Notes: generated by a model not told the origin, from the sequence alone. A stretch of 64,000 nt of DNA from an uncultured Ignavibacteriaceae bacterium (GCA_964480945.1 CAYZRX010000005.1:21556-85555); one strand, 5' to 3'; shown: positions 10,706 through 53,849, numbered from the stretch's first letter. Translations and numbers: made by a program.

Positions 10706-10798
10706 CATTTCGAGAGTTGAAAAAAGAGGAACCGGCAACACGGCCGGGATGACGTTTTTCCGATTTCCCTCGCGATCAGAAACCACACCGGAGAAAAC

Positions 10799-11872: not shown

Positions 11873-12032
11873 CGCACACGGGACTCTCAATAGGAGGAAG
11901 AGAAACGACAAATGCTGTTCTCCCCCATTCGACCTTTGATTCCTTCCTCATGATTCGGTAAAGTACACGGAGGATTTTCCCTTCCACAAAATGTGGTTAT
12001 GATACCTGGCAGGATGCTGAAAGACCCTAGAA

Positions 12033-12150
12033 TGTCATTCCCCCCAAGGGGCAAGCGGCCGAGCGAAGCGAAGAGCCGGAATCCAGAATATGGATTATTT
12101 CTGGACACCCGCTTTTCACGAAGTGATGCCTTCGGCACGCGGGTGTGACA
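12033..12150. repeat. REP/BIME-like palindromic element
   Basis: TGTCATTCCC..GGAATCCAG..CTGGACACCCG..GCGGGTGTGACA with nested inverted repeats and a GCC-TTC-GGC hairpin; intergenic. Confidence 0.6.
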
Positions 12151-12202
12151 TAATTTGGAGTTTTTCAGCACCCTCCTAGTTCGCAATCAAATGGAATCTC
12201 GG

Positions 12203-14266: not shown

Positions 14267-14284
14267 CCTATCAAGGTTGAGATT

Positions 14285-16798: not shown

Positions 16799-16874
16799 GG
16801 AGCTTCGGTGCGATCTGCATCGTCCGTGGAGGCTACGGGAGAAATCGACCATAAATCATCTTCCGAAGGGTCAA

Positions 16875-26039: not shown

Positions 26040-26158
26040 GCTTGAGATGTGTCCGAAGAATTGCATCGGCCGCGCAGAATCATGGAACAATCGTTGAACC
26101 CTGTCTCACTTACAACCCACGAGACGGAAAAAAAACTTCATCAAAGAAGCATACTGTC

Positions 26159-28483: not shown

Positions 28484-28532
28484 CACGGGACGGGGAGTCG
28501 AGAAACCCCGTCGATGGGGTCTTCCGTCGTGC
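28483..28532. terminator. Compound hairpin between convergent genes
   Basis: GCACG-GACGG..CCGTC-GTGC outer stem, ACCCC/GGGGT inner stem; no clear U-tract. Confidence 0.4.
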
Positions 28533-28581
28533 GACCGGCGGTGCTTGAAGTGTAAGAGAGCGCCCTCGTTTATACTTCCCT

Positions 28582-30522: not shown

Positions 30523-30534
30523 CGCTCCTCCATC

Positions 30535-35872: not shown

Positions 35873-35952
35873 GATGCGTCCTCTCAATGCCTCACTGACT
35901 GTGAATCCTCGGATGATCCCAACTGGGACAAGCGCACTGGTTCGCCGCTTTC

Positions 35953-38772
35953 TCACTCGGGCAAACGCACATCAACTTCAGTGCCGTCGTATTCCACGAT
36001 CTTGTCCGGATCTGGAGTTGTGTCAATCCCCACTCCGTGATTCCCGGAAACGACGACGATCCTGAAGCGTCTCTTTCTTATCATACCGGGAAACGTTCCT
36101 TGACGCTTTCCAATTGTCAGCGTCCGGTGGGCCTCGTTCCATCTGAAGTCGACAGTAGCATAAATCCCTTTCTCATAATTGTAATTGTCATTCTCATCCT
36201 CGTACAAGACAAAGCGCCCATCAGCACCCGGATAAATGCGCAGTTCGAAAGGATCTGCCGGCTTCTCTGTTGCATACTGAACAAACGGACCCATCGGGAG
36301 AATGGAGCCAACTCTGACAAAGAGAGGTGTTTTGTCGATTGGTGCGTCCGAGGCTCTCTCCTGGCCGCCATGGAATTTCTCACCCGTCCAGAAATCAATC
36401 CATCCCTCCGATCGGGGGAGATAGACCGGGCGCGTCTTGGGATGATCCTCAACCGTTTGCTCTTTCGCAAAAATCGAGGGGGTTTTCCAGAAGAGTCTCA
36501 TCCGTGCCGCACCCGTGGATGAGTTTTCGGTCTCGAGAACGAAACCGTATTCTCTTCCCGCGATCAAGTCGACGGTGTCGGTATACTGTTCCACGCTGGT
36601 GTAGACGATCGGAAGCCGCTCGCCATCAAGATACATTCTCTTGGCGTCATAACTTTTCATGTGGAACTGGTGTCTTCCCGTTTCCTTTGGAATGAGTCTC
36701 CCTTCCCAACGAATGGAGAACATCGAGTCCGTCACATAGCTGGGCCTGCCGGTGTACCAAACGATGTCGATGTTGGGCACAATCTCTTCCTTGCCGAGAC
36801 TCCCGTACTTATTGTCCCTGTAGTAGCTCACACGTAGGCCGGGCTTCCCATCGTTCGTCTTGAAGTACTCCGGATCAATGAGAACGCTTGGCTCAGGTGG
36901 ACGATGATACTGAGGGTGCGTCACGGGACAAACCATGATGGACGGCCCGAACATGAACTGATCGTCAATAGAGTAGGTTCTCTTGTCTGCGGCAAAATCC
37001 ATCGGAAGGCCGCGCATCACTGTATAGCCTTCACTCGTCACCTTCCAGGCCAGTGAATAGATGTAGGGCAGGAGGCGGTATCGCAACTGGTCGAATTTCA
37101 GGATAGGCTCGACGAATTCGCCCATCTCCCATATCTCCCGCGGCGTTTCGGAACCATGGGACCGGAAGATAGGACAGAACGCACCAAACTGGAACATGCG
37201 GGCGTACAGCTCCTGGTACGCCGGATCTTTGCCGCCCCTCGTGAACACGCCATCATACGCCCCCAGGACAAAGCCTCCGATATCAAATGTCCAGTACGGC
37301 ACGCCTGACATGCAATGATTGAGGCCCGCTGAGATCTGGCGCCGATAGACGTCCCAGCTTGCCCCGATATCGCCCGACCATGTTGTGGCGGCATTCCGTT
37401 GCTGACCGGCAAACGTCGACCTCGTCAGGATGTAACATCGGCGATCGGGTATATCCTTTCTCCAGTCTTCATGAAGACTGCTGGTCATCACGAGCGAGTA
37501 AGGATTCAGGTAGCGCGCGAAGGTTCCCAAGAAGTTGTTGTCAACACGCTTCATCTCGTACTCTGTCGACTCCTTTGTCATCGCGTTGACGACATCGGGT
37601 TCGGTCGAATCTATCCAAAGAGCATCGATGCCCTTGGAAAGAAGCCCTTTCTTGAGATAGCTCCAGTAGAGGCTGTCGGCGGCGGGATTGTAGGCATCGT
37701 AGTATTTGAAGCCAGCCCATCCTACTGGTGAGTACAAGTAGCCATGCTTGTACATCTCTCTGTAGATCTCCGTCTGCGGACCAAGGGCGGGCCAAATGGA
37801 GATCATCATGTGGTAGTGCATGGTGTGAAGACGTTCGAGCATCTCGGCCGGTGTCGGGAAAAGGGTCTTGTCGAAGAACATACCGCCCCAGTGTTCGGGT
37901 CCGTTCCAGTAATCCCAATCCTGAACGATATTGTCAATCGGCATCCTCCGTTCGCGATACTCAACAGCAACGTTCATCAGCTCATCCTGGGTGTGGTAGT
38001 GCTCCTTGCTTTGCCAGTACCCGTATGCCCATCTCCCATAAAGAGGAGCCTGTCCGGTCAACTTCCGATAGCCTGCGATCACCTCATCCATATTCTTGCC
38101 GCGGATGACATAGTAGTCGATATTATCGGCAACGTCCGACCAAAGGGAGGCCTTCTTCTCTCCATCATCTTCATAGATTGTTTTGGAATAGTTGTCCCAG
38201 AGAATGCCATAATTGTTGGTTGAGATCAAGAAGGGGATGACCGCCTCGGTGTTCGATTGCACCAGTTTCACGGTCCTTCCGCGGTAATTCATGTACCCAT
38301 CTTGATGTTGACCAAGACCGTAGATTCCTTCATCAGGGCTGAGCTCGAACGTCTGCCTGATGCTGAACGCTGAATCAGCCCTGTAGACCACGGGTACGAA
38401 CTCGCAGTCGACTTCTTTCAAGATCGTGTTGCCCTTGAGATCGCTCATGACGAGTCTGCCGCGCTCTTGTGCGATAGTCACCTTGAGCGTTCGGCAGCTT
38501 AGTATCACGTTGTCCCGATCCCGCTCCAGTTTCACCGGTAGAGAAGGCAGGCTATCCAGAATGACGCAGAGGCTGGTCTTCTTGTCCGTCACGGTCGGCT
38601 TCCATCGCACCACCCGCACAATATTGTCGTCATAAAACTGGACTTTTACGTTCATGAGGGATGAGTTCACAACGGCTCCGTTCTTGATCTGTTGAACGGC
38701 CTGATTCTCGGCCGAACTCAGATGTGGGGATGCCAGTGTCGAAATGAGGATTGCAGCGAAGCTGATTCTCAT
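35953..38772 (-). CDS. GH31 alpha-xylosidase-like enzyme with PA14 insert after the catalytic domain
   Basis: IVQDW, LWIDSTEPD, WSGD, YWTFDIGGF, RSHG; PA14 (SIRWEG, GRHQFHM). Confidence 0.88.
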   Translation of the reverse strand: MRISFAAILISTLASPHLSSAENQAVQQIKNGAVVNSSLMNVKVQFYDDNIVRVVRWKPTVTDKKTSLCVILDSLPSLPVKLERDRDNVILSCRTLKVTIAQERGRLVMSDLKGNTILKEVDCEFVPVVYRADSAFSIRQTFELSPDEGIYGLGQHQDGYMNYRGRTVKLVQSNTEAVIPFLISTNNYGILWDNYSKTIYEDDGEKKASLWSDVADNIDYYVIRGKNMDEVIAGYRKLTGQAPLYGRWAYGYWQSKEHYHTQDELMNVAVEYRERRMPIDNIVQDWDYWNGPEHWGGMFFDKTLFPTPAEMLERLHTMHYHMMISIWPALGPQTEIYREMYKHGYLYSPVGWAGFKYYDAYNPAADSLYWSYLKKGLLSKGIDALWIDSTEPDVVNAMTKESTEYEMKRVDNNFLGTFARYLNPYSLVMTSSLHEDWRKDIPDRRCYILTRSTFAGQQRNAATTWSGDIGASWDVYRRQISAGLNHCMSGVPYWTFDIGGFVLGAYDGVFTRGGKDPAYQELYARMFQFGAFCPIFRSHGSETPREIWEMGEFVEPILKFDQLRYRLLPYIYSLAWKVTSEGYTVMRGLPMDFAADKRTYSIDDQFMFGPSIMVCPVTHPQYHRPPEPSVLIDPEYFKTNDGKPGLRVSYYRDNKYGSLGKEEIVPNIDIVWYTGRPSYVTDSMFSIRWEGRLIPKETGRHQFHMKSYDAKRMYLDGERLPIVYTSVEQYTDTVDLIAGREYGFVLETENSSTGAARMRLFWKTPSIFAKEQTVEDHPKTRPVYLPRSEGWIDFWTGEKFHGGQERASDAPIDKTPLFVRVGSILPMGPFVQYATEKPADPFELRIYPGADGRFVLYEDENDNYNYEKGIYATVDFRWNEAHRTLTIGKRQGTFPGMIRKRRFRIVVVSGNHGVGIDTTPDPDKIVEYDGTEVDVRLPE

Positions 38773-39423: not shown

Positions 39424-41157
39424 TCAGTCTAGTTCAAATTCTTCTTCAACCACTTCCTTGGTGGGTCCCAGCTTCCCTTTTTCGATGATGAAACTCCCCA
39501 TCACGAGGACGTCCATTTCTGTCCTCATGAAGCATCGCCACGCGTCCTCCGGCGTGCAAACGATCGGCTCTCCGCGGACATTGAAGGACGTATTGATCAT
39601 CACGGGACAGCCGGTCTGGCGATCGAACTCCGTAATCAAATCGTAGAACAACGGGTTTTGGTCGCGAGAGATCGTCTGAAGCCGGGCAGAGCCGTCGACG
39701 TGCGTGACGGCCGGGATCATCTTGTGGTCGATACAGACATCGGCGACAAAGAGCATGAACGGGCTCGGCCGATCGAAATCGAAGTAGTCTCTTGCCCGTT
39801 CCTCCAGGACTGTCGGAGCAAAAGGCCGAAAGCTTTCTCGAAACTTGATCTTCAAGTTGACGATCGTCTGATTCTTGGCATTCCGCGCGTCTGCCAGGAT
39901 GCTGCGGCTCCCGAGGGCCCGCGGCCCAAACTCCATTCGTCCCTGAAACCACCCCACGACTTTCTGTTCAGCAATAAGTCTGGCTGTTTCCTGCAGCATC
40001 TCCTGGCGGGAGCACTTGCTGTACCTTACATTGTTTGACTGCAGAAGAGCCTCAATCTGGTCATCCGAAAACTCAGGTCCGAGGAAGACATTCTTCATCA
40101 CATAAGACCGCGGCCTTCCAAGGATGGTGCTATACACAAGGTATGCCGCGCCCACGGACCCGCCTGCATCCCCGGCCGCCGGCTGAATGAATAGATCGGC
40201 AAAGGCGGTGTTCTCCAGAATCTCGCTGTTTGAGATGCAGTTCAGGGCGACTCCCCCGGCGAGACAGAGGTTTTTCATTCCCGTTTCTTTCTGGACGTGC
40301 CGTGCCATCCTCACCATTATGGTGTTTGTCACCTTTTGGAGGGAGGCCGCGGCATCCTTGTGGAACTGCGTCAGCTTTGCCTCCGGCTCTCTTGCTGGCT
40401 CGCCAAAGAGTTCCGCGAATCTTCTCCCCACCATCTTCAGTCCGTATTCGTAGGTGAAGTATCTCATGTTCAGCCTGAAGCTCCCATCGTCCTCGATCGA
40501 GACCAGTTCTCGCGTGATCAGATCATAGAAGCGAGGCTCACCATACGGCGCCAATCCCATGACCTTGTATTCCGCGCTGTTGACTTTGAACCCGAGGTAG
40601 TAAGTGAAGGCCGAGTACAGCAACCCGAGAGAATGCGGAAATCCGATGTACCGGCTCAACTCGATGTCCGTGCCGCGTCCGACCCCGTAGGTCGTTGTCT
40701 CCCACTCACCGACGCCGTCCGCCGTGATGATGGCCGCCTCTTCAAAGGGAGAGACAAGGAAGGCGCTTGCCGCATGCGAGAGGTGGTGTTCGCAAAACAG
40801 GATTTCTCCCTCGTAGCCGAGTTCGCTGTAGATCCTCTGCGGAATCCAGATCTTCTCCTTGATCCACACCGGCATCGCTTTGAGGAATGAGGGCAAGCCT
40901 TTCGGCCAGGTTGCAAGATACGTTTGGAGAATCCTGTCGAATTTTACGAGCGGTTTGTCATAGAAGACCACGTAGTCAAGCTCTTGCGGTCGGAGGCCGG
41001 CGTAGCCAAGGCAGAAGTCGACCGCGTGCTTCGGGAAGTTCTGGTCGTGCTTCTTGCGGGTGAACCGCTCTTCCTGCGCGGCAGCCGTCAGCTGGCCGTT
41101 CTGGAGGACTGCTGCCGCTGCATCGTGATAGAAACAGGATATTCCGAGGATGTTCAT
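39424..41157 (-). CDS. NodU/CmcH-family carbamoyltransferase
   Basis: GISCFYHDAAA, QEERFTRKKH, EHHLSHAASAF, EFGPRALG, INTSFN. Confidence 0.93.
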   Translation of the reverse strand: MNILGISCFYHDAAAAVLQNGQLTAAAQEERFTRKKHDQNFPKHAVDFCLGYAGLRPQELDYVVFYDKPLVKFDRILQTYLATWPKGLPSFLKAMPVWIKEKIWIPQRIYSELGYEGEILFCEHHLSHAASAFLVSPFEEAAIITADGVGEWETTTYGVGRGTDIELSRYIGFPHSLGLLYSAFTYYLGFKVNSAEYKVMGLAPYGEPRFYDLITRELVSIEDDGSFRLNMRYFTYEYGLKMVGRRFAELFGEPAREPEAKLTQFHKDAAASLQKVTNTIMVRMARHVQKETGMKNLCLAGGVALNCISNSEILENTAFADLFIQPAAGDAGGSVGAAYLVYSTILGRPRSYVMKNVFLGPEFSDDQIEALLQSNNVRYSKCSRQEMLQETARLIAEQKVVGWFQGRMEFGPRALGSRSILADARNAKNQTIVNLKIKFRESFRPFAPTVLEERARDYFDFDRPSPFMLFVADVCIDHKMIPAVTHVDGSARLQTISRDQNPLFYDLITEFDRQTGCPVMINTSFNVRGEPIVCTPEDAWRCFMRTEMDVLVMGSFIIEKGKLGPTKEVVEEEFELD

Positions 41158-41163
41158 ACGACC

Positions 41164-41412
41164 CTAGAACTGGTGGCGTGCCTGGTCGAGGGTGTGGGCA
41201 ACAGGTTCCTTCGATCTCCAGAACGAGCGGCTCGGGCGGATGCGGTGCATGAGGAGATCCTTCCCAACGATCCGAGCAACGAGAGACATCGGACCGATGA
41301 GAACGATGTACACAACTGTCAGAAGGAGAGCGGTGTTGGCAATCGCGAGTGCATGGGCGAATGCCATCCACCACTTGTACACTCTCTGACCAATCTTACG
41401 AAGAAGTTTCAT
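41164..41412 (-). CDS. SxtJ-like small membrane protein
   Basis: One TM segment, C-terminal RHQF; adjacent to carbamoyltransferase. Confidence 0.7.
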   Translation of the reverse strand: MKLLRKIGQRVYKWWMAFAHALAIANTALLLTVVYIVLIGPMSLVARIVGKDLLMHRIRPSRSFWRSKEPVAHTLDQARHQF

Positions 41413-41548
41413 GACAGTCAGCACTCGTTGCGCCAATATATCCAAAAACACGAGGAATCTCAATGAGCGCCTGAGGGAAGGGAGATGATTTCTGCCGTTT
41501 TAGTCTTATATTCCGAGCAGAGACTTGCTAATGGACTGTTGAAGAGCT

Positions 41549-42733
41549 ATGCGGAAGCCGAAGAACCACGATCAATCATTGACCCCTCTCAAGAAGCGCG
41601 TGTTTCTCGCAATCACTCTTTCCTTTCCGGTAGTCCTTCTCGTGGGTCTAGAACTTGCTCTTCGTTGGTTCCAGTATGGACCCGATCTCTCCCTCTTCAA
41701 GCTTCATCAGATCCGCGGGCAGAGCTACTACCTGATGAATCCCGCACTGAAATACCGCTACTTCGGCACCTCCCACTTTGCGCCGTCAACATCGCCTGAG
41801 TATTTCCAGGTCGTCAAACCACGCGGCGTGTATCGCATTTTCTGTCTCGGTGGCTCCACAACCGTCGGCTACCCGTAGTGGTACAATGGCTCGTTCCCCT
41901 CCTATCTTCGTGATCGGTTGAGGGCAACGTTTCCGCAGAAGAACATCGAGATCATTAATGTGGGGATGACTGCCACCAACAGTTTCACTGCGCTCGACAT
42001 CGCGCGAGAGCTCGCACACTACCAGCCGGATCTCATCATCGACTACGACGGACACAACGAGTTCTACGGGGCTCTTGGCGTTGCCTCTCATCAAACGATG
42101 GGTTCATCACGGTTCATGACGCACTTGTACCTCCACCTGATTCACCTCCGTACCTTTCAGCTCCTGCGAGATGCCATCCAAGCAGTCGCTGGACTCATCG
42201 GCCGAACAGACAAACCAGATTCACGCGGGACGATGATGGAAACCCTTGCGCGCGATCGGTATATCCCTTACGGAAGTGCTATGTACGATGACGCTTGCTC
42301 GATGTTCCGCGAAAACCTCGAGGACCTCAAGGCGACGTGCGAGTCAGCTGGGGTACCGCTCATCCTGGGAACTCAAGTGTCAAATCTCCGGGACCAACCT
42401 CCCTTTGTTTCAAGGAATTCGCCTGCGTTGCCATCGGAGCAAGGAGTCCTCTTCCAACGGTTGTACACGGAAGGAATGGAGCTCCAATCGAATGGGTTAT
42501 GGGATTCCGCCATCGTTGCTTTTCGCTCAGCCATTACAGTCGACTCCTGCTTTGCGGACGCCCATTATCGACTTGCCGAGTGCCTTGATACGGCAGGGAG
42601 GAAGCACGAGGCCCTCCCTGAGTACATTCGTGCTCGAGATTACGACGAGCTCCGATTTCGCATGGATAGCAGGTTTAACGATGTGGTTCGAACGATGGAA
42701 GATCATGAACACTGCTTCGTATCCGATATCGAA
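41549..42733 (+). pseudogene. SGNH-hydrolase-like/TPR membrane protein with in-frame TAG (41876) and truncated 3' end
   Basis: RIFCLGGSTTVGYP*WYNGSF reads in frame; YDGHNEFYG; TPR DAHYRLAECL; runs into the antisense of the next gene at 42733. Confidence 0.75.
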
Positions 42734-43096
42734 GTTATAGATGTCGGCCGTGACGCCCGGCGCATAGCCGTCGACGAACACGTTATCGTGAACTTCGATG
42801 AGAAAGTAGAGCAGATTAGTCGCCGATGACCAAACCACCTTGTACCTCCCAAAGTAATCATCGGAGTCCACGTGCGCGCCGTAGGGAATCCACACCTGAC
42901 CGATACGTTGCCACGGAACGTCCTGCCAGCACTTGTCGTCGCCTTTCCCGTCGACAAGAGGAGGAGGTACAACATCGGCGATCAAAACGGTATCGTCCTG
43001 GGTCGTTCGGATCTGGGAGCGCGCGCGAAAGCCGTTCGGAAGAAACGTCAGAAGGGCTATGATTCCGAATCTCAGAAGACAATTATGAGATGGCAT
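42725..43096 (-). pseudogene. CBM9-like sugar-binding protein, 3'-truncated
   Basis: Signal peptide; PLVDGKGDDKCW, YKVVWS..LLYFLIEVHDN; recognisable sequence stops at IYNFDI. Confidence 0.7.
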
Positions 43097-43125
43097 AGGC
43101 GCAGGAGAATACGATGTTTTCTTCT

Positions 43126-43159
43126 AAAAAAAGGTCGGTCACTGAACGCTGGACCGACC
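43126..43159 (-). terminator. Rho-independent terminator after the IPT/TIG gene
   Basis: GGTCGGTC / GACCGACC stem with a 7-T run on the minus strand. Confidence 0.7.
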
Positions 43160-43257
43160 GTGGTTTTTCCTTTGGGCAACTTGGCCCCTGCCTTCACGAG
43201 TATGTCTGCCCCGCACACGCGGCATCCGTTTCGTCGGCAAGCTCAGAAAGCTGCCCA

Positions 43258-44505
43258 TCAGAAGTATGGGACACCTGCTGTTCCCATTCGCACCCGGATG
43301 ATATTCCACATGTTCGCTGTCTGCGTGCCAGGATCGTTACTGATCATGTAGAGATTCTGCCCACCCCCCCAAGCAGATTGTTTACCATAGGGTGCGAGAA
43401 TACCTTTATAAAAGTAATCCAAGGTGTTGGTCGTTGGGTCGAAGACCACGAGCGGGTTCACGTCATCGATCGTAATGTACATTGTTCCAGTCGCAGAGAA
43501 CGCAATGGCTTTTACGACGCTCGAAGAGAAACCCGCAAGATCAACGACAAGAGATTGAGACCCGAGATTGCCGGCAGCGTCTATTGTGTGTCTCCAGATC
43601 TTCGCAGGGGTCGTTGTATTGGCTTGTCTCGATGCTACATAGAGATACCCGCTGACTGCGCGGATCGCCAGGATCTCGTCCGTGCGGTAGGATCCCGCCG
43701 TTTTGATCTGAGCAGTAGTGAGATCGACAGGAGGGTTGGGAGGAACCACGCAAAGATCGGTCGACGCGCCTCCCGTGTAAAAATTCCCGTAAGCGTCAAA
43801 GTCACCACAATTCACGGGTATGCCGGAAGGAAGTCTGGTCCACCGGGTCAATCGACCGGTCGACAGATCTGCCATCTGAATCTCTCTTTGGAGCTTTCCT
43901 ATGAGGTACAGAATTCCGTTGTGGATTCTGGCATCCGAGTAAACTCTCTTGATGGCAGGGCTCACCGCTGTAACCGATAATTGAGCGGCTGATCCATCAG
44001 GAGCGACCATCCAAAACGTGTAGGGTGTTCCTGACGCGACGACGTAAGTATTTTCTGCGCTGTCCACGGCAACGGTAGCGAGCGGTATGTTAGCAACAAA
44101 GGCGCCGTAGCGGTCCATCACGGCATCGATGCCGTACGGGCTCATCTTTGCAGCGAGATACGCCTTAGCGGAGACGACCTTGATCTCAGCAGACGCGGCA
44201 AACAGATTGGGGCGACGAACCGTGAGAGAGGTGCTGGATGCGTTGACGATTTCTGTGACCGTGCTGTTGAAGTAGACAGTCATATCGCTGATGGAATCAC
44301 TGAAGCTCTGCCCCTGAATCGTAATCATATTCACGCCGGCAGGCGCCGCCCCAGGAGGAATGACTCCGGTGATCGTGGGCGTCGTCACCGTCGGAGCCGG
44401 CTTGTCCCATACCGGCCCCGCGACATCATAACTGCATCCGATCACTGCGGCCATGCTTGCGGCGGCGATGAGACATGCAAGCAGAAAGAAACGATACGCA
44501 TTCAT
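43258..44505 (-). CDS. Lipoprotein with IPT/TIG domain and beta-propeller-like region
   Basis: Lipobox VIGC; PTITGVIP..ITIQG..VYFN; repeated beta-strand motifs. Confidence 0.75.
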   Translation of the reverse strand: MNAYRFFLLACLIAAASMAAVIGCSYDVAGPVWDKPAPTVTTPTITGVIPPGAAPAGVNMITIQGQSFSDSISDMTVYFNSTVTEIVNASSTSLTVRRPNLFAASAEIKVVSAKAYLAAKMSPYGIDAVMDRYGAFVANIPLATVAVDSAENTYVVASGTPYTFWMVAPDGSAAQLSVTAVSPAIKRVYSDARIHNGILYLIGKLQREIQMADLSTGRLTRWTRLPSGIPVNCGDFDAYGNFYTGGASTDLCVVPPNPPVDLTTAQIKTAGSYRTDEILAIRAVSGYLYVASRQANTTTPAKIWRHTIDAAGNLGSQSLVVDLAGFSSSVVKAIAFSATGTMYITIDDVNPLVVFDPTTNTLDYFYKGILAPYGKQSAWGGGQNLYMISNDPGTQTANMWNIIRVRMGTAGVPYF

Positions 44506-44525
44506 GAGCTCATTCCTTCACGGTT

Positions 44526-45587
44526 TCAAAATGAAAAACGTGCGGTCATCCGTTGGACGTTCTGGAAAATGCCGTACGGCGTATACGAGTAGTCGAAGGA
44601 GAATCCGAACTTGGAGACCCCTACGCCATATGAAAGTCCGCTCTCATCGCTGTTCGTCGCATATCCACCGCGCAGCGAGAGCATATCCATAATCCGATAA
44701 TCGATTCCTACCTTCAGCTGTTCCGGATGATCCCGGTAATGGCTTGCGTCAACACTCAGATAGAGCGATTGATCAAAGGGGAGCTTCGGAACCAGGTCCA
44801 TCACGTTCATCGATATTCCGAGGGTAAAAACCAGCGGCAGCTGAAATCCTTCGTAGACGTACTGGATATCCTTGGAGAAATTCCTTACCGACATCCCAAA
44901 CACCAGGCTCTTGAACCCCGTCCTGAATTGAGTTCCGAAATCGAAAACGAACGGTGTCAGTCTGTTCGACGCGGTCCTTGCCGAATCAGCATAATACAGG
45001 ATGGTCGTTCCCGTGCTGTCGAACACCGGGTTTGAAGGTGCTTCGCTCGGAACAAAACTGTCGCCCAGGTCCTGTCGAGCCCACCGTACCTGACCTCCGA
45101 CGCTGAATTGATTCGTCAGCTGTTTGGCGTACCCGATCCCGACCGCCAAGGCATTCAACTTGAAGATGCCGACATCAACATACCCCTTCTGACTGAGCGG
45201 ATCCCTGTCTACGCGGGTGCCGATGAATTCCCCATAGTCCACATATTGTATGCTGAAGCCCAGCACCCCGTAATCGCCCTTGAAGGGACTAACGGCGATG
45301 CCAAATGTGTAATGTCGGATATCAGCTATCCACCGGTTGTTGCTTGCTGTGACATCGAAGAATCCATCCATTGCCGACATGCCGGCTGGATTGAAGAACA
45401 GTGCGCTTGAACCAATCTGGAGACTCGTCACGGCGTCCGCCATGGCAGCGGCCCGTGCATCCGAGACCACACTCAAGAACCCAAAACTGGTCTGTGCCAG
45501 TTTTTGATTGGTTTGGGCGATCCCGCAATCGGTCAACAGGACCCCCAGCAGAACTCCTATCGCTATAACGCCCGTCGTCTTTTTCAT
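44526..45587 (-). CDS. PorV/PorQ-family outer-membrane beta-barrel
   Basis: DARAAAMADA, ALFFNPAG, LSLRGGY, YSYTPYG, terminal Phe. Confidence 0.85.
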   Translation of the reverse strand: MKKTTGVIAIGVLLGVLLTDCGIAQTNQKLAQTSFGFLSVVSDARAAAMADAVTSLQIGSSALFFNPAGMSAMDGFFDVTASNNRWIADIRHYTFGIAVSPFKGDYGVLGFSIQYVDYGEFIGTRVDRDPLSQKGYVDVGIFKLNALAVGIGYAKQLTNQFSVGGQVRWARQDLGDSFVPSEAPSNPVFDSTGTTILYYADSARTASNRLTPFVFDFGTQFRTGFKSLVFGMSVRNFSKDIQYVYEGFQLPLVFTLGISMNVMDLVPKLPFDQSLYLSVDASHYRDHPEQLKVGIDYRIMDMLSLRGGYATNSDESGLSYGVGVSKFGFSFDYSYTPYGIFQNVQRMTARFSF

Positions 45588-45598
45588 CGATCAAGCCC

Positions 45599-47863
45599 TT
45601 ACCTGATAATCACAAACTTGCGGAACGTTGTTTGGCCCGCGCTGAAGATTTTGTCTCCGTTACGAAAGATGACGGCACCCCGAGGATACATCAACTTCAG
45701 GTGTTCATCGTAGACGTCATAATTCGCAACTCTGTCCTGCGTCGCATAGGTATCTTCGGTCACTTCAACGAACAGGATGTAAATGCCGCTGACCACGATC
45801 TGGTTCGAAGAAGTCTTGGAATCCCAGGCTTCATCGCCCGAGCCATTGGTGTGATCCTTTTCCCATACGAGGGTTCCGTTTTCGGTGAAGATCTTCAGCT
45901 TGCATGTTGGCGGCAGTCCGTAGAACATGATCCGGTCGATGTTGCCGGTGGTGCCGGTGTTGGGATCCGCGAACTGCCATTTCCGTGACCGGATATCGTA
46001 GGGATTCGGGACGACTCGCACCTCTCCGAGCAGATTGCCGGCAGGTCTCAGGAGGTGGGCCGGCACAGAAGTCGGCGTCAGGAACAGACTGCTGTACAAT
46101 GGGGTGCCCGGCTTCACATCGTTCTGCGTACCGTCGTCTTTGGACTGAATGTAGTAGTAGTAATTGAATCCGCGCACCGCCGACGTATCGTCCCATTGGG
46201 TGACGGCATTTGCAGCATTACATTGGAAGACCTTCTGGTAAACGGACCGATAGTCTTTCACCGTCCCTTCGCATCGGTAGATGACGTAGCCGTCAAAATG
46301 GGGCCCGCTCGCCGCATTGTTGTCCCACTCCAGGTGAATTCGGTCTCCACCTGAAGTCACGGAGAAACTGCTCGGCGCGGGAGGCGGCTGAGGAATTGCA
46401 TAGTTGGAACTAAAATTGGCCGTGGCGTTGCGAAACGTCTGCAGGAGGGAATCCTTGCCCGTTTCAACCCACGCACGCGTATAGTCGGTGTATGTCGTAC
46501 CGCTGGTCCCGGGAGGAAAATTGAGCGATGGCGTGCTCGTCCCCTTGTAGTACGCATACCATACGGCTCCAACCTCACGGCATTTTTGCCAACTGATTCC
46601 GCTCACTCCTTCGGCAAACACAATGTGGATGCTATCACCCGGGGCCAATGTATAGGGGCCAAATCCCTGTCCCTGCTCCCCGCCATAGCGGTTGGTATGG
46701 GTTGTACCCCAATCTTCAACATATTGGCTGCCGACGGATTCCTCATGAGACTGAGGGAGATGGCCCTCCGTCATCCTCTGATACCGTGCCTGCATGAACA
46801 CATCGTCGTACTGGCTGACGGACGCTGCCATGATGGTTTCGTCCGGACCAAAATATGATGTAGTCGCCGGCTGGCTGGGATCGTCAGTCCCGAAGCTCTG
46901 GGGAGTCTGCGAAGCGAACAACGTCACGCAGCCGGCGTACTTTGCCGAACCCAACAATCCATCCAAGCCCGGTCCGCCTCCATTTTGGTTTGGGCAGCCC
47001 CAATCCTGATCGTACGTGACGCTTGTCCGGTTCTTCGACGGAGCGTAAAAAGAATAGAAACCTCTCATAGTGCCAGTCGTGGAAAGCGGTCTGTAAGGGC
47101 CGAAATCGTGTTGAACGGTGCTGGTACCCCACTCCGATTCGAAGGCTCCCCACGTCGAGCCCCAGCCGCTGGAGGTAACTCCGGCGAAAGCATACCGGTA
47201 GCTGAAATGAACCCAGAAGTTGTTCAGGGTCTGCGGAGGGCTCATCACGTCGCCGTTCTTGTTGTAGATGCCTGTGTTCGTGAAGACGTAATCATAGATG
47301 AAGTAGTTGTCGTGATTTTGCTGCGTGAACGCCAACACCTTTTTTGTGACCGAGACGCCCATAGAGGTATTGAACTTGATCACCACCATTCGGTCGCATG
47401 GAAGATCACTCTGCACCTCGTCCAGCACATCATAGAGTTGATTGCTCGCGGCGAGCTGGTTATCCACAACCACGATCGGCGGATTGCTCTGCCCGATCAA
47501 CTTTATGCTCTGCGGAAAAATCACGGTAGGCTGGTTGACCGCGTCGTACCGGGGCCCGGAACCGACGACTTTCACGGCTTTGACCTTTTTTTCGACCGGA
47601 TCGTAGAAATTCGTGGCGCCCAGCCACAGGCCTTTCATGCGGCTTGTGTACTGATTGTCGCCGTACTGTGCGGGCCACGTAAAGGAATTGTTGTTGAAGG
47701 GCGTCAGTTCGTTCTCCGACCCGTAGTCCACCAGAAAAGACTGCAGCTGTCCAACGCGAATCCATCGCAGCTCCTGGCAGAGGGCAAGTTGAATGCTGCC
47801 GACGACGAGCATCAAACAGACGAACGGCAGCGCTGGTCGAATCTTCCTGATCGTATTGTTCAT
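45599..47863 (-). CDS. Secreted protein with FN3-like domain and variant T9SS CTD (VVPNPY type)
   Basis: PPPAP..IHLEW..GYVIYR; VRVVPNPY..VSGIYI..RKFVIIR. Confidence 0.75.
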   Translation of the reverse strand: MNNTIRKIRPALPFVCLMLVVGSIQLALCQELRWIRVGQLQSFLVDYGSENELTPFNNNSFTWPAQYGDNQYTSRMKGLWLGATNFYDPVEKKVKAVKVVGSGPRYDAVNQPTVIFPQSIKLIGQSNPPIVVVDNQLAASNQLYDVLDEVQSDLPCDRMVVIKFNTSMGVSVTKKVLAFTQQNHDNYFIYDYVFTNTGIYNKNGDVMSPPQTLNNFWVHFSYRYAFAGVTSSGWGSTWGAFESEWGTSTVQHDFGPYRPLSTTGTMRGFYSFYAPSKNRTSVTYDQDWGCPNQNGGGPGLDGLLGSAKYAGCVTLFASQTPQSFGTDDPSQPATTSYFGPDETIMAASVSQYDDVFMQARYQRMTEGHLPQSHEESVGSQYVEDWGTTHTNRYGGEQGQGFGPYTLAPGDSIHIVFAEGVSGISWQKCREVGAVWYAYYKGTSTPSLNFPPGTSGTTYTDYTRAWVETGKDSLLQTFRNATANFSSNYAIPQPPPAPSSFSVTSGGDRIHLEWDNNAASGPHFDGYVIYRCEGTVKDYRSVYQKVFQCNAANAVTQWDDTSAVRGFNYYYYIQSKDDGTQNDVKPGTPLYSSLFLTPTSVPAHLLRPAGNLLGEVRVVPNPYDIRSRKWQFADPNTGTTGNIDRIMFYGLPPTCKLKIFTENGTLVWEKDHTNGSGDEAWDSKTSSNQIVVSGIYILFVEVTEDTYATQDRVANYDVYDEHLKLMYPRGAVIFRNGDKIFSAGQTTFRKFVIIR

Positions 47864-47898
47864 CTGAAATTCCCGTTCAGATCAATAGTTGGCAAATG

Positions 47899-50800
47899 TC
47901 AATCCAAGTCGAATGAAACCCGAAGGCCGAAGGTGACGGCGCGGGGAGTCAGGAACCAATACGTGGAGGGATTCGGCATGAAGATGTACGCCTTGTCGCT
48001 GTTGATTTGATCGATCCTCTTCTGATCGACCGACGACCAACGTTGTGCAACGGGGAGGCTTGCGTCGTCCGCGTATTGCCAGTATTGTCCGGTCTTCGCT
48101 TCGTAATAGATCGCGTGTGTTCTTCCGGGAGAGAGCTTGGTTTGCGTCATGTCCGCCTGGTATTCAATGGGCTGCCATTCGACGCCCGGTTTGCGATAGT
48201 CCCCGAGCTTGTCGTCGCCGGGAATATTGTTATAAGCATTGCCTTTCGGCAGATGGAGGGAACGCCTGTAATCTTGGTCGCCGGTGTTCCTGAGGCGCAA
48301 CGCATTGAAAAGATTGTAGACGTCGGCAAACAGCTGGATCGTGAATCGATCGACTTTGAGGGACTTGCTGGCACGCAGCGTCGCATCGAAATAATCCACA
48401 TACTGCACGTTGTTGCTGACGCCCGGGGCATTGAGCGGGTTATACGTGGTCCATCCCCCTTGATTCCAGTTCAGCAGAAAGCTGAATAGGAAATCGCCAA
48501 ACCCGTTGTGCCCCAGTACCTTCGGCCCAAAATCTCCAGGCGTGGAGAAATTGAGGTTTGCTGTGGCATAGGGCGTGGGTTTGTATCGAGTCTGATACAG
48601 ATTCACCGTGTTCTGGTCGTAGGCTTGCTGTTGGGAAGGATCCTGAAACAATTGACCTTCGCCGAAGTTGCCGCTCGAGTAGGTCTGATAGGTATAGTTG
48701 GCGAATCCTGAGAACCAGCGCCCCGGGGATTTGCGTATGGTCACCTCGAACCCACGAATATCCCGATAGGAATTGCTCGTTGTTACAGTGTAGGTTTGGC
48801 CGAAAATCGGCGTGTAGGTCGTCGTGTTTTGCTGGTTGCTAATGTCGCGATAGTACGCAGTGACTTGAACCAGCACGGAATTGTCGAAGAGCTGCTGATC
48901 ATACCCCAACTCGTATGAAATGGTCTTCGCAAGAGCCAGGTTGGGATCGCCGAGGCGCGCGAGTGAGTGATCAGTTCTGCGATCGACTCGAAACAACGAT
49001 TCGTACTGCGGCATTTGTTTGAAGTGGCCGTAGTTGAAGTAAAGTTTGGAGTTTTCCGTAATGGGATGCGAAATGCCGATCCTCGGGCTCAACTGCCATT
49101 GGCCTTTGGATTTCTGCACGGCAAGCACCTGCTGAGGGTTATACTGGTATGAGTAGAAATCTGCGTCATAAGGATTATAGCTCCACCAGTATGTTTGGGA
49201 ATTGCTGTAATCCAGACGAAGGCCGGCGTTCAGGACAAACCCATTGGTCTCCAGCTTGTCCTGAAGGTACGCGGCTCCCCGGATGGGGAAATTGTCCATC
49301 TGAACGCGGCTGGCGTAAAGATTTCCGCCGGTTTGCATTTGTATGAAGCCGTAGTCCAAATTGAGATCGTTATAGACGAATTCAACGCCCGCCTTCACCT
49401 CGTTGTTGAAATCGACCTGGCTGGTCAAGTCTGCTCTGACAGAAACCTGGTTCGAAATGGAATTATCGCGGGCCAACGACTCTTGGGAAGCATCTTTGAT
49501 GACGACGCCATCAGATATTCCAGGAAGATAGCCGAAGGGGTTTGAAGTCTCGAAGAAACCGGGAAAGATCTCATACTTCTGCGAGGTATCTCGTGCGGCA
49601 GGCGGCCGTGAGAAATAGTTGGTCCTGAAGTATTCCAGCGAGACCTCATAATATGTTTTTTCGTTCAAGAGATGTGTCAGTTTCGCGGCGATCGAACGAT
49701 GGCCGATATCGGTGAGGCTGTAGGTCATATTACTGTACATGTTCAGCAACACGTCGCCCCCGGTGCCGTTTGCGATATCGCTCGGATAGTGAGGGTAAAA
49801 TCCTTTGTTCCAATTATCCTCCATCGTGGCGACATTGCCTGTCAACCCCGAGAACCGGAGCTTCATCGTATTGCTGATGTCGGCATTCAATACAAGTCGT
49901 GCGTCGTAATCAGCATAGTCCGGCCTCGTCATGGGGAAGAGAAGGAGCTCTCGTTGGCGACGGTAGGAGGCAAAGAAACGGAGATTGCCGAGCGCTTCGG
50001 AAACCATCGGAACGGGGCCGCCGAGGCCGGCGTCGATTTCGTAGTCAGGCTCGGTGTTGATCTGTTGCTTTCGTGTTTCATACTCAAAGGCGCGTTGGGC
50101 ACCTAATGGCGTCAGGTCGTTGTTCGGATTGTCGTCGGTGAGCAACGCTTTCGACACCGCGTTCCACCCGTCGAACGGGAGGTATTGCTTCTTCGTGTAC
50201 TCATCCCAAGCACCGTTGTTCGTGCCCGTCCAGCAAACGGCGGGATCGAAGAAAGGTCGCAACCAGTACGAGGTTGGGTCGTTGACATCCGGGATCCCAC
50301 CACCACGATAGTACTTCGGGGCCGGCGGTGTGAGCCGGACATTGATGCTCCCCGAATAGCCTTTCCGTTTTCCTTCGTATGTAACAACCTTGACGATGCC
50401 CGATTGAACCTGACCGTATTCCGCATTGAAGCCTCCACGCTCGACGGAAATCTCCTTGACGGTGCTCAACGCCACTTTCGTCACAGGCTGGTTATTGCGG
50501 GGATCCCTCATCGTGACACCGTCGAGCATGAACAGAGCCTCACCGGCTCCCCCGCCGCGAATCGCCATTCCTTGAACACCGGCCTGCATGCTGATGACAT
50601 CCTGGACGTTGACAGCAGGCAATTGCGAAATCTCGTTGTCGGAAATATCGACAACGCTGGTCGCCACATCCGGCTTGATGATCCTGCGTTCAGCGACGAC
50701 GACCACCTCGCCAACTTCAATTGCCTGTACCCGCAATGCAATATTCAGCCGCGCGGTCTGGTCGATGTACACGCGCACATCGCTGATGACCATCTTTTCG

Positions 50801-51051
50801 TATCCGACATACGATACCTCAACGCTGTACGACCCCGGCGGGACATTCAGAATCGTGTATTGGCCGGCCACATCGGTCGCCGCCCCGAGGGTCGATCCAA
50901 CAACACGAATATTGGCGCCGATGAGCGGTTCACGAGTTTCTTGATCCGTAACAATGCCAGCGATTTTTCCTGTGGTCTGCGCCCAAAGCGGGGCCGCTAG
51001 TGTGATCGCAACCAACAGACTCGATGCTATCACCCTCACAGCTGATTCCAT
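47899..51051 (-). CDS. TonB-dependent receptor (carboxypeptidase-regulatory N-domain, non-SusC type)
   Basis: EPLIGANI, IRGGG..LDGV..GGFNAEYG, SPRIGISHP, terminal GLRVSFDLD; start 51051 behind AAGGAG. Confidence 0.92.
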   Translation of the reverse strand: MESAVRVIASSLLVAITLAAPLWAQTTGKIAGIVTDQETREPLIGANIRVVGSTLGAATDVAGQYTILNVPPGSYSVEVSYVGYEKMVISDVRVYIDQTARLNIALRVQAIEVGEVVVVAERRIIKPDVATSVVDISDNEISQLPAVNVQDVISMQAGVQGMAIRGGGAGEALFMLDGVTMRDPRNNQPVTKVALSTVKEISVERGGFNAEYGQVQSGIVKVVTYEGKRKGYSGSINVRLTPPAPKYYRGGGIPDVNDPTSYWLRPFFDPAVCWTGTNNGAWDEYTKKQYLPFDGWNAVSKALLTDDNPNNDLTPLGAQRAFEYETRKQQINTEPDYEIDAGLGGPVPMVSEALGNLRFFASYRRQRELLLFPMTRPDYADYDARLVLNADISNTMKLRFSGLTGNVATMEDNWNKGFYPHYPSDIANGTGGDVLLNMYSNMTYSLTDIGHRSIAAKLTHLLNEKTYYEVSLEYFRTNYFSRPPAARDTSQKYEIFPGFFETSNPFGYLPGISDGVVIKDASQESLARDNSISNQVSVRADLTSQVDFNNEVKAGVEFVYNDLNLDYGFIQMQTGGNLYASRVQMDNFPIRGAAYLQDKLETNGFVLNAGLRLDYSNSQTYWWSYNPYDADFYSYQYNPQQVLAVQKSKGQWQLSPRIGISHPITENSKLYFNYGHFKQMPQYESLFRVDRRTDHSLARLGDPNLALAKTISYELGYDQQLFDNSVLVQVTAYYRDISNQQNTTTYTPIFGQTYTVTTSNSYRDIRGFEVTIRKSPGRWFSGFANYTYQTYSSGNFGEGQLFQDPSQQQAYDQNTVNLYQTRYKPTPYATANLNFSTPGDFGPKVLGHNGFGDFLFSFLLNWNQGGWTTYNPLNAPGVSNNVQYVDYFDATLRASKSLKVDRFTIQLFADVYNLFNALRLRNTGDQDYRRSLHLPKGNAYNNIPGDDKLGDYRKPGVEWQPIEYQADMTQTKLSPGRTHAIYYEAKTGQYWQYADDASLPVAQRWSSVDQKRIDQINSDKAYIFMPNPSTYWFLTPRAVTFGLRVSFDLD

Positions 51052-51473
51052 ATTGGATGACTCCTTGAGAAATGGGTCAGAGTTACGCTCCGTGAGGTAA
51101 GAAAAGGACATACAGGCAAGAATGAATACTTAGAAGCCAGCATCGGCAACCGATGTGAATTCCAGAGCCCGAACTGATGTTCGTGCCCTGGCTGAACAGT
51201 CCTGGATGGAATTGATCAGGAAGTAATTGTACCAGTTCAACGTCTGATGGATTTTTGACAAATTCAACTCTCTTCTGGGAGGAATCAATCTGTCAATCGG
51301 ATAACGGACTCCCGAAAGTGGCAATCGACGCTGTACTTGAGATGGCCGCGATCTCCGAAGGAACGGCGCGTGGTCATTCGTGGAAGGGCTTCGACCGTTG
51401 ACCCGTCCTAGCGAAAACTAGAAGACAACTCTGCGGTTCGCAGCGCACACCCTTCACAAACCTCGCACCCTCG

Positions 51474-53519
51474 TCACCAATCGTCCGTCCGGAACGACGG
51501 GGCCGGCAATCCGTCTTTGTTGAAAAGCGTAGCCTCCGGTGCATTCGTGAAGGCATATCGGACAGCTAGCGGCCAGACTATTTCAGGATTGGAGAGGATC
51601 AGCCGGTTGCCCCGTACTCGTACGATGGCACGCTTGAATACCCGGTCCGGGCCGGCGATCTGGAATCCGTTCCCTTGAGTACCCTCTTCTACCTCGAGTC
51701 CTCCCTCCGCGTGCTCGAACAGCAGTTCAATCCTACCCTTGTGCCATTTATCGGACTTGAACAACGGTCCGGAGTACGGGATCTCCATGCCATAGGTCTT
51801 GGCCAACGCCCACAACGCGAGCCTCCCACCCACGTCCTGCTTGTCCGCCGGATGAATGTTCGTCGCGTTCCCGATGTCAAGTGTTACAGCCATACCGGTA
51901 TTCTCGATTGAAAGTGCCTCCGCCTGTGCCTCGCGCAGAAATTGCGACTTTGTTGAAGGGCCATACTCGTACGGCGCTATTTGTACGTAGTAGAAAGGAA
52001 GAAGGCTGCCCATCCTGAAATCGCTCCTCCAGTTCCTGATAAGGAGTGGGAAGAGCACCTTGTACTGTTTCGGATCCTTGGTGTCCGATTCCCCCTGATA
52101 CCAGATCACCCCTCTGATGGAATAGGGGATCACGGGTGCGATCATACCGTTGTAGAGAGCTGTCGGGGTGTCTGCCGAGAGATCAATCGGCAAACGGGGC
52201 CTCGTCTCATACTGGTCGCCAACTGGTCCGAACACATACAGGAGATTGCCAAGATATTCCGCGACAGGCAGGTACTTCCAGTTACCCGCGAGCGAGATGC
52301 GGTCGTCGCCTCCTTCGAGGTGCAGCGCCATCGACCTTGGATCACCATAGATCCCACCCCCGCCCTGGTAGTCGACCACGCGCACGGCGATCTGCACAAC
52401 CGTGCTGTCCACGATTCCGCTCGGGACTTCATACACCCTCTCCACCTTCCACTCCCCCTCCCCTTCGTGGCCGCCGACCTTCACACCGTTCACGAATGTC
52501 GCATCGATGTCGTCGATCGGACCGAGCTCCAGAATGAGCTTCCTCTGAACCCAGTCTGGTGGAATCGTGATCTGCTTCCTGAACCAGACGACGCCATCGA
52601 AATTCCCCATCTCGGTCGCTTCCCATAACGTGGGCAAGCGCATCACACGCCACGAGGCGTCGTCAAAAGAGGGCAACGCACACCCGTCATCTCCAAAGCT
52701 AAGCTCTTCCCACCTGCTGTCGCCTTTCCTGGCGCGCATGTCTATGACCGGATATCGACGCAGCCAGGTCTTCATGCGTTGTTGTCCGTCGGCACTCGCT
52801 CTCACCTTCTGAAGCGTCGTGTCAAATTGCGGAGCCTGCGAGAGAAAGCGCGCGGCAATCCACGAATGAACCGCCGTTCCTCCCCAGCTGGCGTGGATCA
52901 GACCGATCGGCACGTGCAGCGTTTCATACAATTTCTTTCCGAAGAAGTAGGCCGTCGCGCTGAAGTCGCCCGAAGTGGCGGGTGAGCACTCCGCCCACGC
53001 TCCATCGCACTCCGACTCCGGTACGGCGGAGAATGCCCGCCTCACGGTGAACAAGCGGATGTTGGGGAAGGATGAATTCTTAATCTCCCGTGCCGAGTTC
53101 TGGACCGTGTCCGTCGGCGGCCATCCGGCAAGCGGCATCTCCATGTTTGACTGTCCGGAACATAGCCAGACCTCGCCGACAAGAACATTTCTGATCGTCA
53201 GCGCCGTGTCATCGTGTCCGATGACGAGCTGATACGGCCCGCCGGCTGCGGGTGTGTTCAGTTTCAGCACCCAGGAACTGTCCGGATCGACGCGGGTCGC
53301 AACGCTCGTTCCCCACGACGATTCAAGCCTCACCTCGGACCCCGGCATTCCTCGTCCCCACAAGGGGACGATGCTCTGTTGCTGGAGGACCATATTATCG
53401 GTAATGAGAGGTGCCACACGGAAGAGCCTCTGTTGGCATATGGCGAACGAGGATATAAGGAACAAGGAAAGAAGAAGAGAGGCCACGGTGGCATTAAGCG
53501 ACGGGTCGCGGGTCTTCAT
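51474..53519 (-). CDS. SASA-family (sialate O-acetylesterase-like) acetylesterase with internal galactose-binding-like domain
   Basis: GEVWLCSGQSNME, VIWYQGES, DIGNATNIHP. Confidence 0.88.
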   Translation of the reverse strand: MKTRDPSLNATVASLLLSLFLISSFAICQQRLFRVAPLITDNMVLQQQSIVPLWGRGMPGSEVRLESSWGTSVATRVDPDSSWVLKLNTPAAGGPYQLVIGHDDTALTIRNVLVGEVWLCSGQSNMEMPLAGWPPTDTVQNSAREIKNSSFPNIRLFTVRRAFSAVPESECDGAWAECSPATSGDFSATAYFFGKKLYETLHVPIGLIHASWGGTAVHSWIAARFLSQAPQFDTTLQKVRASADGQQRMKTWLRRYPVIDMRARKGDSRWEELSFGDDGCALPSFDDASWRVMRLPTLWEATEMGNFDGVVWFRKQITIPPDWVQRKLILELGPIDDIDATFVNGVKVGGHEGEGEWKVERVYEVPSGIVDSTVVQIAVRVVDYQGGGGIYGDPRSMALHLEGGDDRISLAGNWKYLPVAEYLGNLLYVFGPVGDQYETRPRLPIDLSADTPTALYNGMIAPVIPYSIRGVIWYQGESDTKDPKQYKVLFPLLIRNWRSDFRMGSLLPFYYVQIAPYEYGPSTKSQFLREAQAEALSIENTGMAVTLDIGNATNIHPADKQDVGGRLALWALAKTYGMEIPYSGPLFKSDKWHKGRIELLFEHAEGGLEVEEGTQGNGFQIAGPDRVFKRAIVRVRGNRLILSNPEIVWPLAVRYAFTNAPEATLFNKDGLPAPSFRTDDW

Positions 53520-53683
53520 CTCAGTGACAAGAGTTAAGAATGAACGCCTCTAGACCACTTCAATAGAGCAAATCCCCTGCCAGTTTGAGATTGTTGATTC
53601 TCTGGCGGAAAAACCACCCCTTCGTGCGTCGCGCCCACAACCATTTATCAAATCAATAATCCCTTCTTCTTTTAACAATCAAA

Positions 53684-53699
53684 AGGGCAAGCTTGCCCT
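53684..53699. promoter_or_regulatory. Perfect 16-bp palindrome in a divergent intergenic region
   Basis: AGGGCAAGCTTGCCCT. Confidence 0.35.
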
Positions 53700-53849
53700 G
53701 AGAAAATGGGCGGGGCCGCGCTCCGGGTTTCGAGCCTGCTTCGTGGCATCGTTTGTGAATAATCTGCATATTTTCAGTTCGGATTGGCGTCGATGAACAT
53801 ACTCTCAACCCCCCTCGGCCGTTGAGGCCTTTGAGAACAAGGTGGATCT

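Follow-up and report, generated by a model that had tools for sequence, protein, structure and literature searches.

A conserved gene set of a TonB-dependent receptor, a T9SS-tailed protein, and a PorV-family barrel as a candidate glycan-capture module in Ignavibacteria

The accepted model of glycan capture in Bacteroidota is the SusC/SusD pair. In such systems (RagA/RagB among them, also called "utilisomes"), a large CarbopepD_reg TonB-dependent transporter is followed by an obligatory surface partner and then by a surface glycan-binding-type lipoprotein, and these polysaccharide utilization loci (PULs) are set among substrate-specific carbohydrate-active enzymes (CAZymes), in many copies per genome and in different glycan contexts. 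Type IX secretion system (T9SS) cargo proteins offer a second comparison. In published work, PorQ and PorV hold PorZ and PorU, respectively, both of which retain their C-terminal domains (CTDs), and cargo with a type B CTD depends on adjacent PorP/SprF barrels; one review proposes that cognate PorV-like barrels shield CTDs from cleavage (PMC10202324). Here we describe a gene set that resembles both. It lies in a 64,000-nucleotide stretch of DNA (hereafter, the window) from an uncultured Ignavibacteriaceae bacterium (GCA_964480945.1, CAYZRX010000005.1:21556-85555) and encodes a TonB-dependent receptor (TBDR), a 754-aa secreted cargo protein with a variant T9SS CTD, a barrel of the PorV/PorQ family, and an IPT/TIG lipoprotein. 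This outer-membrane gene set is real, its conservation is strict, and it is unstudied. We assign a probability of roughly 0.55 to the reading that the four genes make up a single outer-membrane module for nutrient capture, with xyloglucan oligosaccharides as its most likely substrate, in which the T9SS-exported cargo is anchored by its uncleaved CTD and serves as the capture partner of the TBDR.

The four genes are tightly packed on the minus strand at 43258-51111 of the window, and a fifth co-oriented open reading frame (ORF), CBM9-like, follows at 42527-43096. The intergenic gaps, from the TBDR gene to the CBM9-like ORF, are 35, 11, 20, and 161 bp, as expected from a preliminary description of this DNA, made from the sequence alone, that had listed five co-oriented and closely spaced ORFs here. 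Promoter and terminator counts in a scan of 41000-54000 were at the chance level and marked out no operon boundaries. The host genome is 3.9 Mb in size and 98% complete. The features of the four genes are as follows.

47899..51111, minus strand: TBDR, 1070 aa, with a CarbopepD_reg N-terminal domain, a Plug domain, and a large barrel (Pfam)
45599..47863, minus strand: 754-aa secreted cargo, with a Sec signal peptide, an N-domain, an FN3 domain, and a variant T9SS CTD
47777-47863, minus strand: Sec signal peptide of the cargo
46394-47776, minus strand: beta-supersandwich N-domain of the cargo, with a helical hairpin
46040-46393, minus strand: FN3 domain of the cargo
45602..46039, minus strand: variant CTD of the cargo, residues 609-754 (RVVPNPYDIR ... 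SGIYILFVE ... FRKFVIIR)
45629..45760, minus strand: insertion in the CTD (EDTYATQ...FSAGQ), about 44 aa, residues ~702-745, between the last two CTD strands
44526..45587, minus strand: private PorV/PorQ-family barrel, 353 aa (NF033709, 166.1 bits against a cut-off of 90, full-length)
43258..44505, minus strand: IPT/TIG lipoprotein, 415 aa, with lipobox VIGC and a TIG Pfam match

The conservation of this arrangement was assessed at 77 orthologous loci in species-representative genomes from five phyla of the Fibrobacteres-Chlorobi-Bacteroidetes (FCB) group (Ignavibacteriota/Bacteroidota, KSB1, Neomarinimicrobiota, Calditrichota, and Zhuqueibacter). A TBDR gene was directly upstream of the 754-aa protein gene at 68/68 evaluable loci, and a PorV-like gene was directly downstream at 50 of 51 (ORF calling gave 46/51, and tblastn recovered an intact gene in 4 of the 5 misses). 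The TIG lipoprotein gene was next in order at 42/46 evaluable loci; the median gaps given with these two counts were 19 and 11 bp. The PorV linkage, the conservation of which the preliminary description had proposed to check, therefore extends across the five phyla. The 754-aa protein has at least 677 homologues at 50 to 86% identity, all of which carry generic names in their sources (hypothetical or FN3 domain-containing), and in a sample of the phylum it was present in 53/201 genomes and 31/109 genera. Named carriers of the same tetrad include Rhodothermus marinus, Rhodocaloribacter litoris, Balneola, and Ignavibacterium album.

A profile of the variant CTD was also searched against ten genomes of nine genera. 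Among matches of at least 60 bits, 60/62 had a PorV_fam gene as the immediate downstream neighbor on the same strand, and one of the two without it lay at a contig edge. Matches below 35 bits had a downstream PorV_fam gene in 1 of 30 cases, namely, PorU upstream of PorV. Seen from the barrels, 72 of the 118 PorV-family genes in the ten genomes were paired with a variant CTD; the single canonical PorV of each genome was never paired with a CTD of the variant class, its sole upstream CTD match being the weak one to PorU. A P0001-like TBDR gene started 3.7 to 7.0 kb upstream in 70/71 CTD-barrel pairs (protein search), and the exception lay at a contig edge. Two to ten such triads were present per genome.

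Three further pairs of a variant CTD and a PorV-like protein, each with its own barrel, were found in the genome from which the window derives.

Contig C78: GH28, TBDR, 738-aa cargo, and barrel; the cargo is a full-length homologue of the 754-aa protein (hhalign probability, 99)
Contig C16: TBDR, 1157-aa cargo, and barrel; the cargo shares the CTD alone with the 754-aa protein
Contig C95: cargo and barrel; the contig edge interrupts the pair

The lipoprotein was considered as a constant fourth part of the core and rejected; the fourth gene of the C78 triad is unrelated to the TIG lipoprotein, and the core is therefore taken to be the triad of TBDR, cargo, and barrel. At the end of contig C40 are a triad-type TBDR and the first 279 aa of an ORF (28231-32046), and C95 opens on the final 699 aa of a variant-CTD cargo, with a PorV-like gene behind it (22-3229, L017); the assembly has probably divided a single triad between the two contig ends.

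The barrel falls within the PorV/PorQ family and scored below the cut-offs of the PorV equivalog (NF033710, 64.8 bits against 250), of the PorQ equivalog (NF033711, 69.1 bits against 220), and of PorP_fam (PorP/SprF, 18.9 bits against 90.55). A sequence search of the PDB with the barrel gave no useful match. In a barrel tree, the barrels adjoining orthologues of the 754-aa protein form one clade, the C78 barrel is sister to it, the C16 and C95 barrels group in a second clade, and canonical PorV lies outside the triad clades, so that the tree tracks cargo type. The canonical PorV of the host (269.5 bits against 250) is encoded on contig C30 beside PorU (C25 peptidase). The earlier proposal that a private PorV is the partner of the CTD protein thus gains from the linkage in both surveys and from the location of canonical PorV elsewhere. 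Further PorV-family paralogues that are unpaired occur at C3:100989-102032 (L020) and C116:4336-6083 (L021) of the same genome; one of these is nearest to the "PorV2" model (216.8 bits; cut-off, 325), and a tandem pair is nearest to PorQ.

The last 145 residues of the 754-aa protein scored weakly against CHU_C (18.1 bits against a cut-off of 27, below assignment to type B) and against the type A tail TIGR04183/PF18962, Por_Secre_tail (13.8 bits against 23); their best library match was the C terminus of PorZ, as it was for the CTDs of all four triads of this genome. A PDB sequence search with the whole protein returned a weak match to the PorZ CTD alone (PDB 5M11). The RVVPNPYDIR motif occupies residues 616-625. 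Two of 20 aligned homologues of the 754-aa protein have a canonical type A tail (QNYPNPF...SGIYFYRL...KKLVLIK) that matches the variant (RVVPNPYDIR...SGIYILYVE...FRKFVVIR) column by column, which identifies the variant tail as a diverged T9SS CTD, and the cargo encoded on C78 passes the type A cut-off at 24.5 bits. Judged by its sequence, the variant CTD is a distinct class, related to the type A CTD, that precedes a private PorV-family gene. In a 50%-identity representative library of 1.84 billion proteins, the CTD profile matched 2768 clusters at an E value of ≤1e-10; among the full-length matches listed, most were proteins of ~700 to 780 aa with the domain at the extreme C terminus. Among the parts of the cassette, the CTD core evolves most slowly (mean distance, 0.48; barrel, 0.63; N-domain, 0.90), and this low divergence, unexpected for a cleaved tail that is discarded, is an indirect sign of retention.

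The insertion of about 40 aa that the preliminary description saw in this CTD is real and is modeled as a hairpin (predicted local distance difference test [pLDDT] score, 77 to 90). It had been taken there as the mark of a dedicated partner, a role that does not hold up: insertion length in orthologues is 0, ~17, ~40, or ~57 residues, varying with lineage, and the private barrel is kept regardless. No relation between insertion length and the length of the PorV-like protein was visible. Ordinary CTDs elsewhere in the window were found as described, with canonical PF18962 tails encoded at 12155-14266, 18775-21018, and 28582-30522.

Compared with SusC/SusD, the triad shares the gene order and the genomic setting and differs in its parts. 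The TBDR scored 82.7 bits against the SusC/RagA model TIGR04056 (cut-off, 368.25), with a match confined to the N-terminal 130 positions, and therefore falls outside SusC/RagA as defined by this model. Its true start is probably M21. Its closest paralogues in the genome are the other triad TBDRs (contigs C78, C16, and C40), and it belongs to the TBDR subgroup that heads nearly every triad. The partner is also different, being an all-beta FN3/CTD protein with a Sec signal and a T9SS tail and no lipid anchor, unlike the alpha-helical tetratricopeptide repeat (TPR) lipoprotein SusD, and a third gene, for the PorV-family barrel, is needed. In the AlphaFold model of the cargo (pLDDT, 81; predicted TM score, 0.79), a beta-rich N-domain, a helical hairpin, an FN3 domain, and a CTD sandwich are predicted. 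A SusD/TPR fold in the 754-aa or the 415-aa protein, named in the preliminary description as the outcome that would tell against its proposal, was found in neither model; both are predicted beta folds. The triad system ranges over Ignavibacteria, Rhodothermia, Balneolia, KSB1, Calditrichota, and Marinimicrobia.

SusD_RagB (PF07980, the sole SusD model searched) had no match in the cassette, where its absence had been claimed before, or in the whole 98%-complete genome; other SusD-like Pfam models were not searched. Among five Ignavibacteria-type genomes, which carry 4 to 9 triads (7 to 9 in each of the four besides the present one), SusD was absent from four and gave a single weak match in one. 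A second TBDR of the window (1011 aa, 1614-4649, minus strand) is followed by a beta-helix protein (3-1547, minus strand). Neither a variant CTD (CTD profile) nor an adjoining barrel (PorV_fam search) was found at this site, and not all large TBDRs here are therefore triad members.

Compared with T9SS systems, the triad resembles PorZ-PorQ and PorU-PorV of the Porphyromonas gingivalis attachment complex, in which the CTD of a T9SS cargo is believed to stay in place and the cargo to be held at the cell surface by a PorV-family barrel; PorZ is also the protein against which triad CTDs score best. Those are single housekeeping parts, whereas the triad pair occurs 2 to 10 times per genome, is encoded by adjacent genes, and is tied to a TBDR, and its retention would follow by analogy. 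Type B CTD cargo with PorP/SprF barrels (SprB/SprF of Flavobacterium johnsoniae) is likewise encoded next to a cargo-specific barrel gene and has a CTD that is thought to stay uncleaved and to act as an anchor; unlike SprB/SprF, which lack a TBDR, the triad has a CTD related to type A and a barrel of the PorV/PorQ family.

Cassettes of this kind are visible in published R. marinus loci. In the alginate PUL (hypA/hypB/hypC), the order in Fig. 2 of the report is a TBDR, a "T9SS type A sorting domain protein," a "PorV/PorQ family protein," and a hypothetical protein (PMC9530828). Table 1 of a second report lists, for the xylan locus Rmar_1070-1073, a TBDR and three hypothetical proteins, of which two have Por CTDs and none has a PorV/PorQ annotation (PMC6987092). 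These cassettes have other cargo paralogues than the triad described here and are associated with other glycans, and the genes are not discussed in either paper. A search of open-access papers found no analysis of the triad. In one R. marinus genome (G003, C1:2243021-2246333, L102), the TBDR of the triad orthologous to ours is in two pieces with an in-frame TGA and may be a pseudogene in that strain; a SusC/SusD pair lies ~7 to 10 kb upstream of it.

In the mechanism that we favor, Sec would carry the 754-aa protein across the inner membrane, and the T9SS (SprA, PorU, and PorV) would export it by way of its CTD. The host has the T9SS genes, with SprA at 795 bits and the PorU-PorV pair on another contig. 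The uncleaved CTD would then stay on the extracellular face of the neighboring private barrel, as PorZ stays on PorQ and PorU on PorV, and the anchored beta-sandwich N-domain, at or over the TBDR, would be the substrate-capturing partner, in the role that SusD has for SusC. The IPT/propeller lipoprotein would contribute surface glycan binding. Enzymes with ordinary CTDs (GH74-like and GH5/GH9) would cleave the polymer outside the cell, and the TBDR would import the fragments, to be trimmed in the periplasm by GH31, GH2, and GH3 enzymes. Export, retention on the barrel, contact between cargo and TBDR, and the substrate are the steps that we infer; the case for a capture partner is built on the provision of one barrel per cargo, the PorZ-like CTDs, the slow evolution of the CTD core, and the place of the TBDR gene directly upstream, as in susC-susD.

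Several observations weigh against this mechanism. Fold matches to the N-domain are weak (TM, ~0.2) and uninformative on ligand binding. The CTD of the 754-aa protein is below the Por_Secre_tail cut-off, so that its recognition by the T9SS rests on homology. A mirror-tree comparison within one orthologue group gave raw correlations of 0.67 to 0.89 among all cassette parts, and the partial correlation of CTD core and barrel was 0.06 after control for TBDR distance, with no specific signal. Triads also occur alongside 2 to 10 SusD genes in four genomes (Rhodothermus, Rhodocaloribacter, and Balneola-like genomes), with 6 SusD genes and 9 triads in Rhodothermus and 7 SusD genes and 10 triads in Rhodocaloribacter. 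This coexistence makes the triad a parallel system and not a simple substitute for SusC/SusD; replacement of SusD, as first proposed, fits the Ignavibacteria-type genomes but not these four, which have both systems. Finally, the very high cross-phylum conservation of the 754-aa protein would suit an enzyme as well. Indeed, the protein might be a barrel-anchored surface enzyme of an undescribed family (a glycoside hydrolase, lyase, or esterase) and the counterpart of SusG rather than of SusD. Its many invariant Asp, Glu, Trp, and Arg residues would agree with this, as would its Foldseek matches, which apart from FN3 tandems are weak matches to multidomain glycoside hydrolases and phosphorylases, and the linkage data are equally compatible. 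However, the matched parts of the GH94, GH15-like, and GH31 enzymes are their noncatalytic N-terminal supersandwich domains, no Pfam family scored above its cut-off, and no match to a catalytic domain was found in Pfam, NCBIfam, or PDB sequence searches. Endo-acting enzymes with ordinary CTDs are already encoded in the locus, and the strict place of the gene directly after the TBDR mirrors the susC-susD order. We therefore regard an enzyme as unlikely.

The private barrel could instead be an export shuttle only, one that takes the cargo from the SprA translocon, after which the cargo would be cleaved and either released or attached to lipopolysaccharide, leaving no lasting complex. Canonical PorV is such a shuttle according to a passage of PMC12578637 that cites Glew 2017, and the variant CTD is a homologue of the type A CTD, which is cleavable and the cut-off for which its C78 paralogue passes. 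A transient role, however, would need no paralogue for each cargo, and 2 to 10 are present per genome, diversifying with the cargo; nor would it account for a CTD that is more conserved than the remaining protein or for the obligatory TBDR upstream (70/71). This makes a pure shuttle decidedly improbable. There is a slimmer chance still that no physical complex exists and that these are merely coregulated genes of a glycan locus, with a FadL-type barrel that has its own transport role. PorV-family barrels are homologues of FadL, and the mirror-tree result is what would be expected under this explanation, but the order and spacing are near invariant across five phyla, dozens of paralogous triads, and varied CAZyme contexts, the pairing tracks the CTD class and not the glycan, and the barrels fall within the PorV/PorQ family. 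On balance, anchoring of the cargo beside the TBDR as its capture partner is the explanation that we prefer.

The lipoprotein and the neighboring genes bear on what the module might capture. In the lipoprotein model (pLDDT, 90.7), an IPT domain is joined to a six-bladed NHL-type beta-propeller, and the top Foldseek matches are all from Bacteroides (3HRP, 3TC9 [BT_3476], and 4HW6 [BACOVA_00264]), of which 3TC9 and 4HW6 were deposited as "auxiliary nutrient binding proteins." As modeled, the lipoprotein resembles a PUL surface glycan-binding protein. In the TIG lipoprotein alignment, the consensus from the lipid-anchor Cys is C-E-Y-D-V; the acidic residues at +2 and +4 are reminiscent of the lipoprotein export signal of Bacteroidota and would fit surface exposure. 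The CAZyme genes of the window are as follows.

26042-28483, plus strand: Sortilin-Vps10/BNR protein (GH74-like)
30535-32997, minus strand: GH2 (Pfam)
33029-35956, minus strand: GH31+PA14 (Pfam)
35953-38772, minus strand: GH31+PA14 (Pfam), in tandem with the preceding gene
Within 8426-18581: GH3, GH5, GH9-CTD, and GH94

Several of these CAZymes carry ordinary CTDs, and with the lipoprotein they give the locus the co-localized CAZymes and surface glycan-binding-type lipoprotein of a PUL. Thirteen related loci also have a GH31+PA14 gene (~945 aa) on the downstream side of the tetrad. The GH31 pair and GH2 are likely periplasmic debranching enzymes for an imported oligosaccharide. On the strength of the two GH31 genes, GH2, and the GH74-like gene, xyloglucan oligosaccharides are the most likely substrate, and the gene set probably imports xyloglucan fragments. 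The mannan genes to which the preliminary description pointed are present upstream (GH130 and SSS), but the GH31 pair and the GH2, GH74-like, GH3, GH5, GH9, and GH94 genes are more telling.

The triad seems to do the job of the SusC/SusD pair in relatives of Bacteroides. More tentatively, it could be a third, uncharacterized architecture of TonB-dependent glycan import, in which a T9SS-delivered partner is held by its uncleaved CTD on a dedicated barrel, present in 2 to 10 copies per genome over much of the FCB group and, in Ignavibacteria, the sole accessory system of such receptors. SusC/SusD leaves unexplained how TBDRs are fed in Ignavibacteria, KSB1, Calditrichota, Marinimicrobia, and similar abundant degraders of sediment, soil, and ocean, a gap that the triad would fill. 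If this is true, the T9SS gains a second job, that of building nutrient-uptake machines, and the dozen PorV paralogues in each such genome are accounted for. The triad would also improve PUL prediction, which now depends on SusD. The idea is directly testable, as the module is carried by cultured hosts (Rhodothermus marinus, Ignavibacterium album, and Melioribacter). Genetic tools are available for R. marinus.

Two genes of the window are unannotated members of the glycan locus, namely, a 455-aa ORF with no Pfam match (53850-55217, plus strand) and a 646-aa protein for which the only match is a canonical Por_Secre_tail (28582-30522, minus strand). The CBM9-like gene, counted as a cassette member in the preliminary description, does exist as an ORF but is a truncated remnant outside the conserved core.

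42527..43096, minus strand: truncated CBM9-like ORF, 189 aa

Its homology to relatives of 293 to 388 aa in the same cassette orientation (L022, L041, and L060) ends at residue 125 of 189 (position ~42722), and the CBM9_1 match covers profile positions 1-58 of 185 only. The ORF overlaps a convergent TPR/SGNH-like ORF (41918-42829, plus strand), and from its sequence the gene looks to have been truncated by a deletion.

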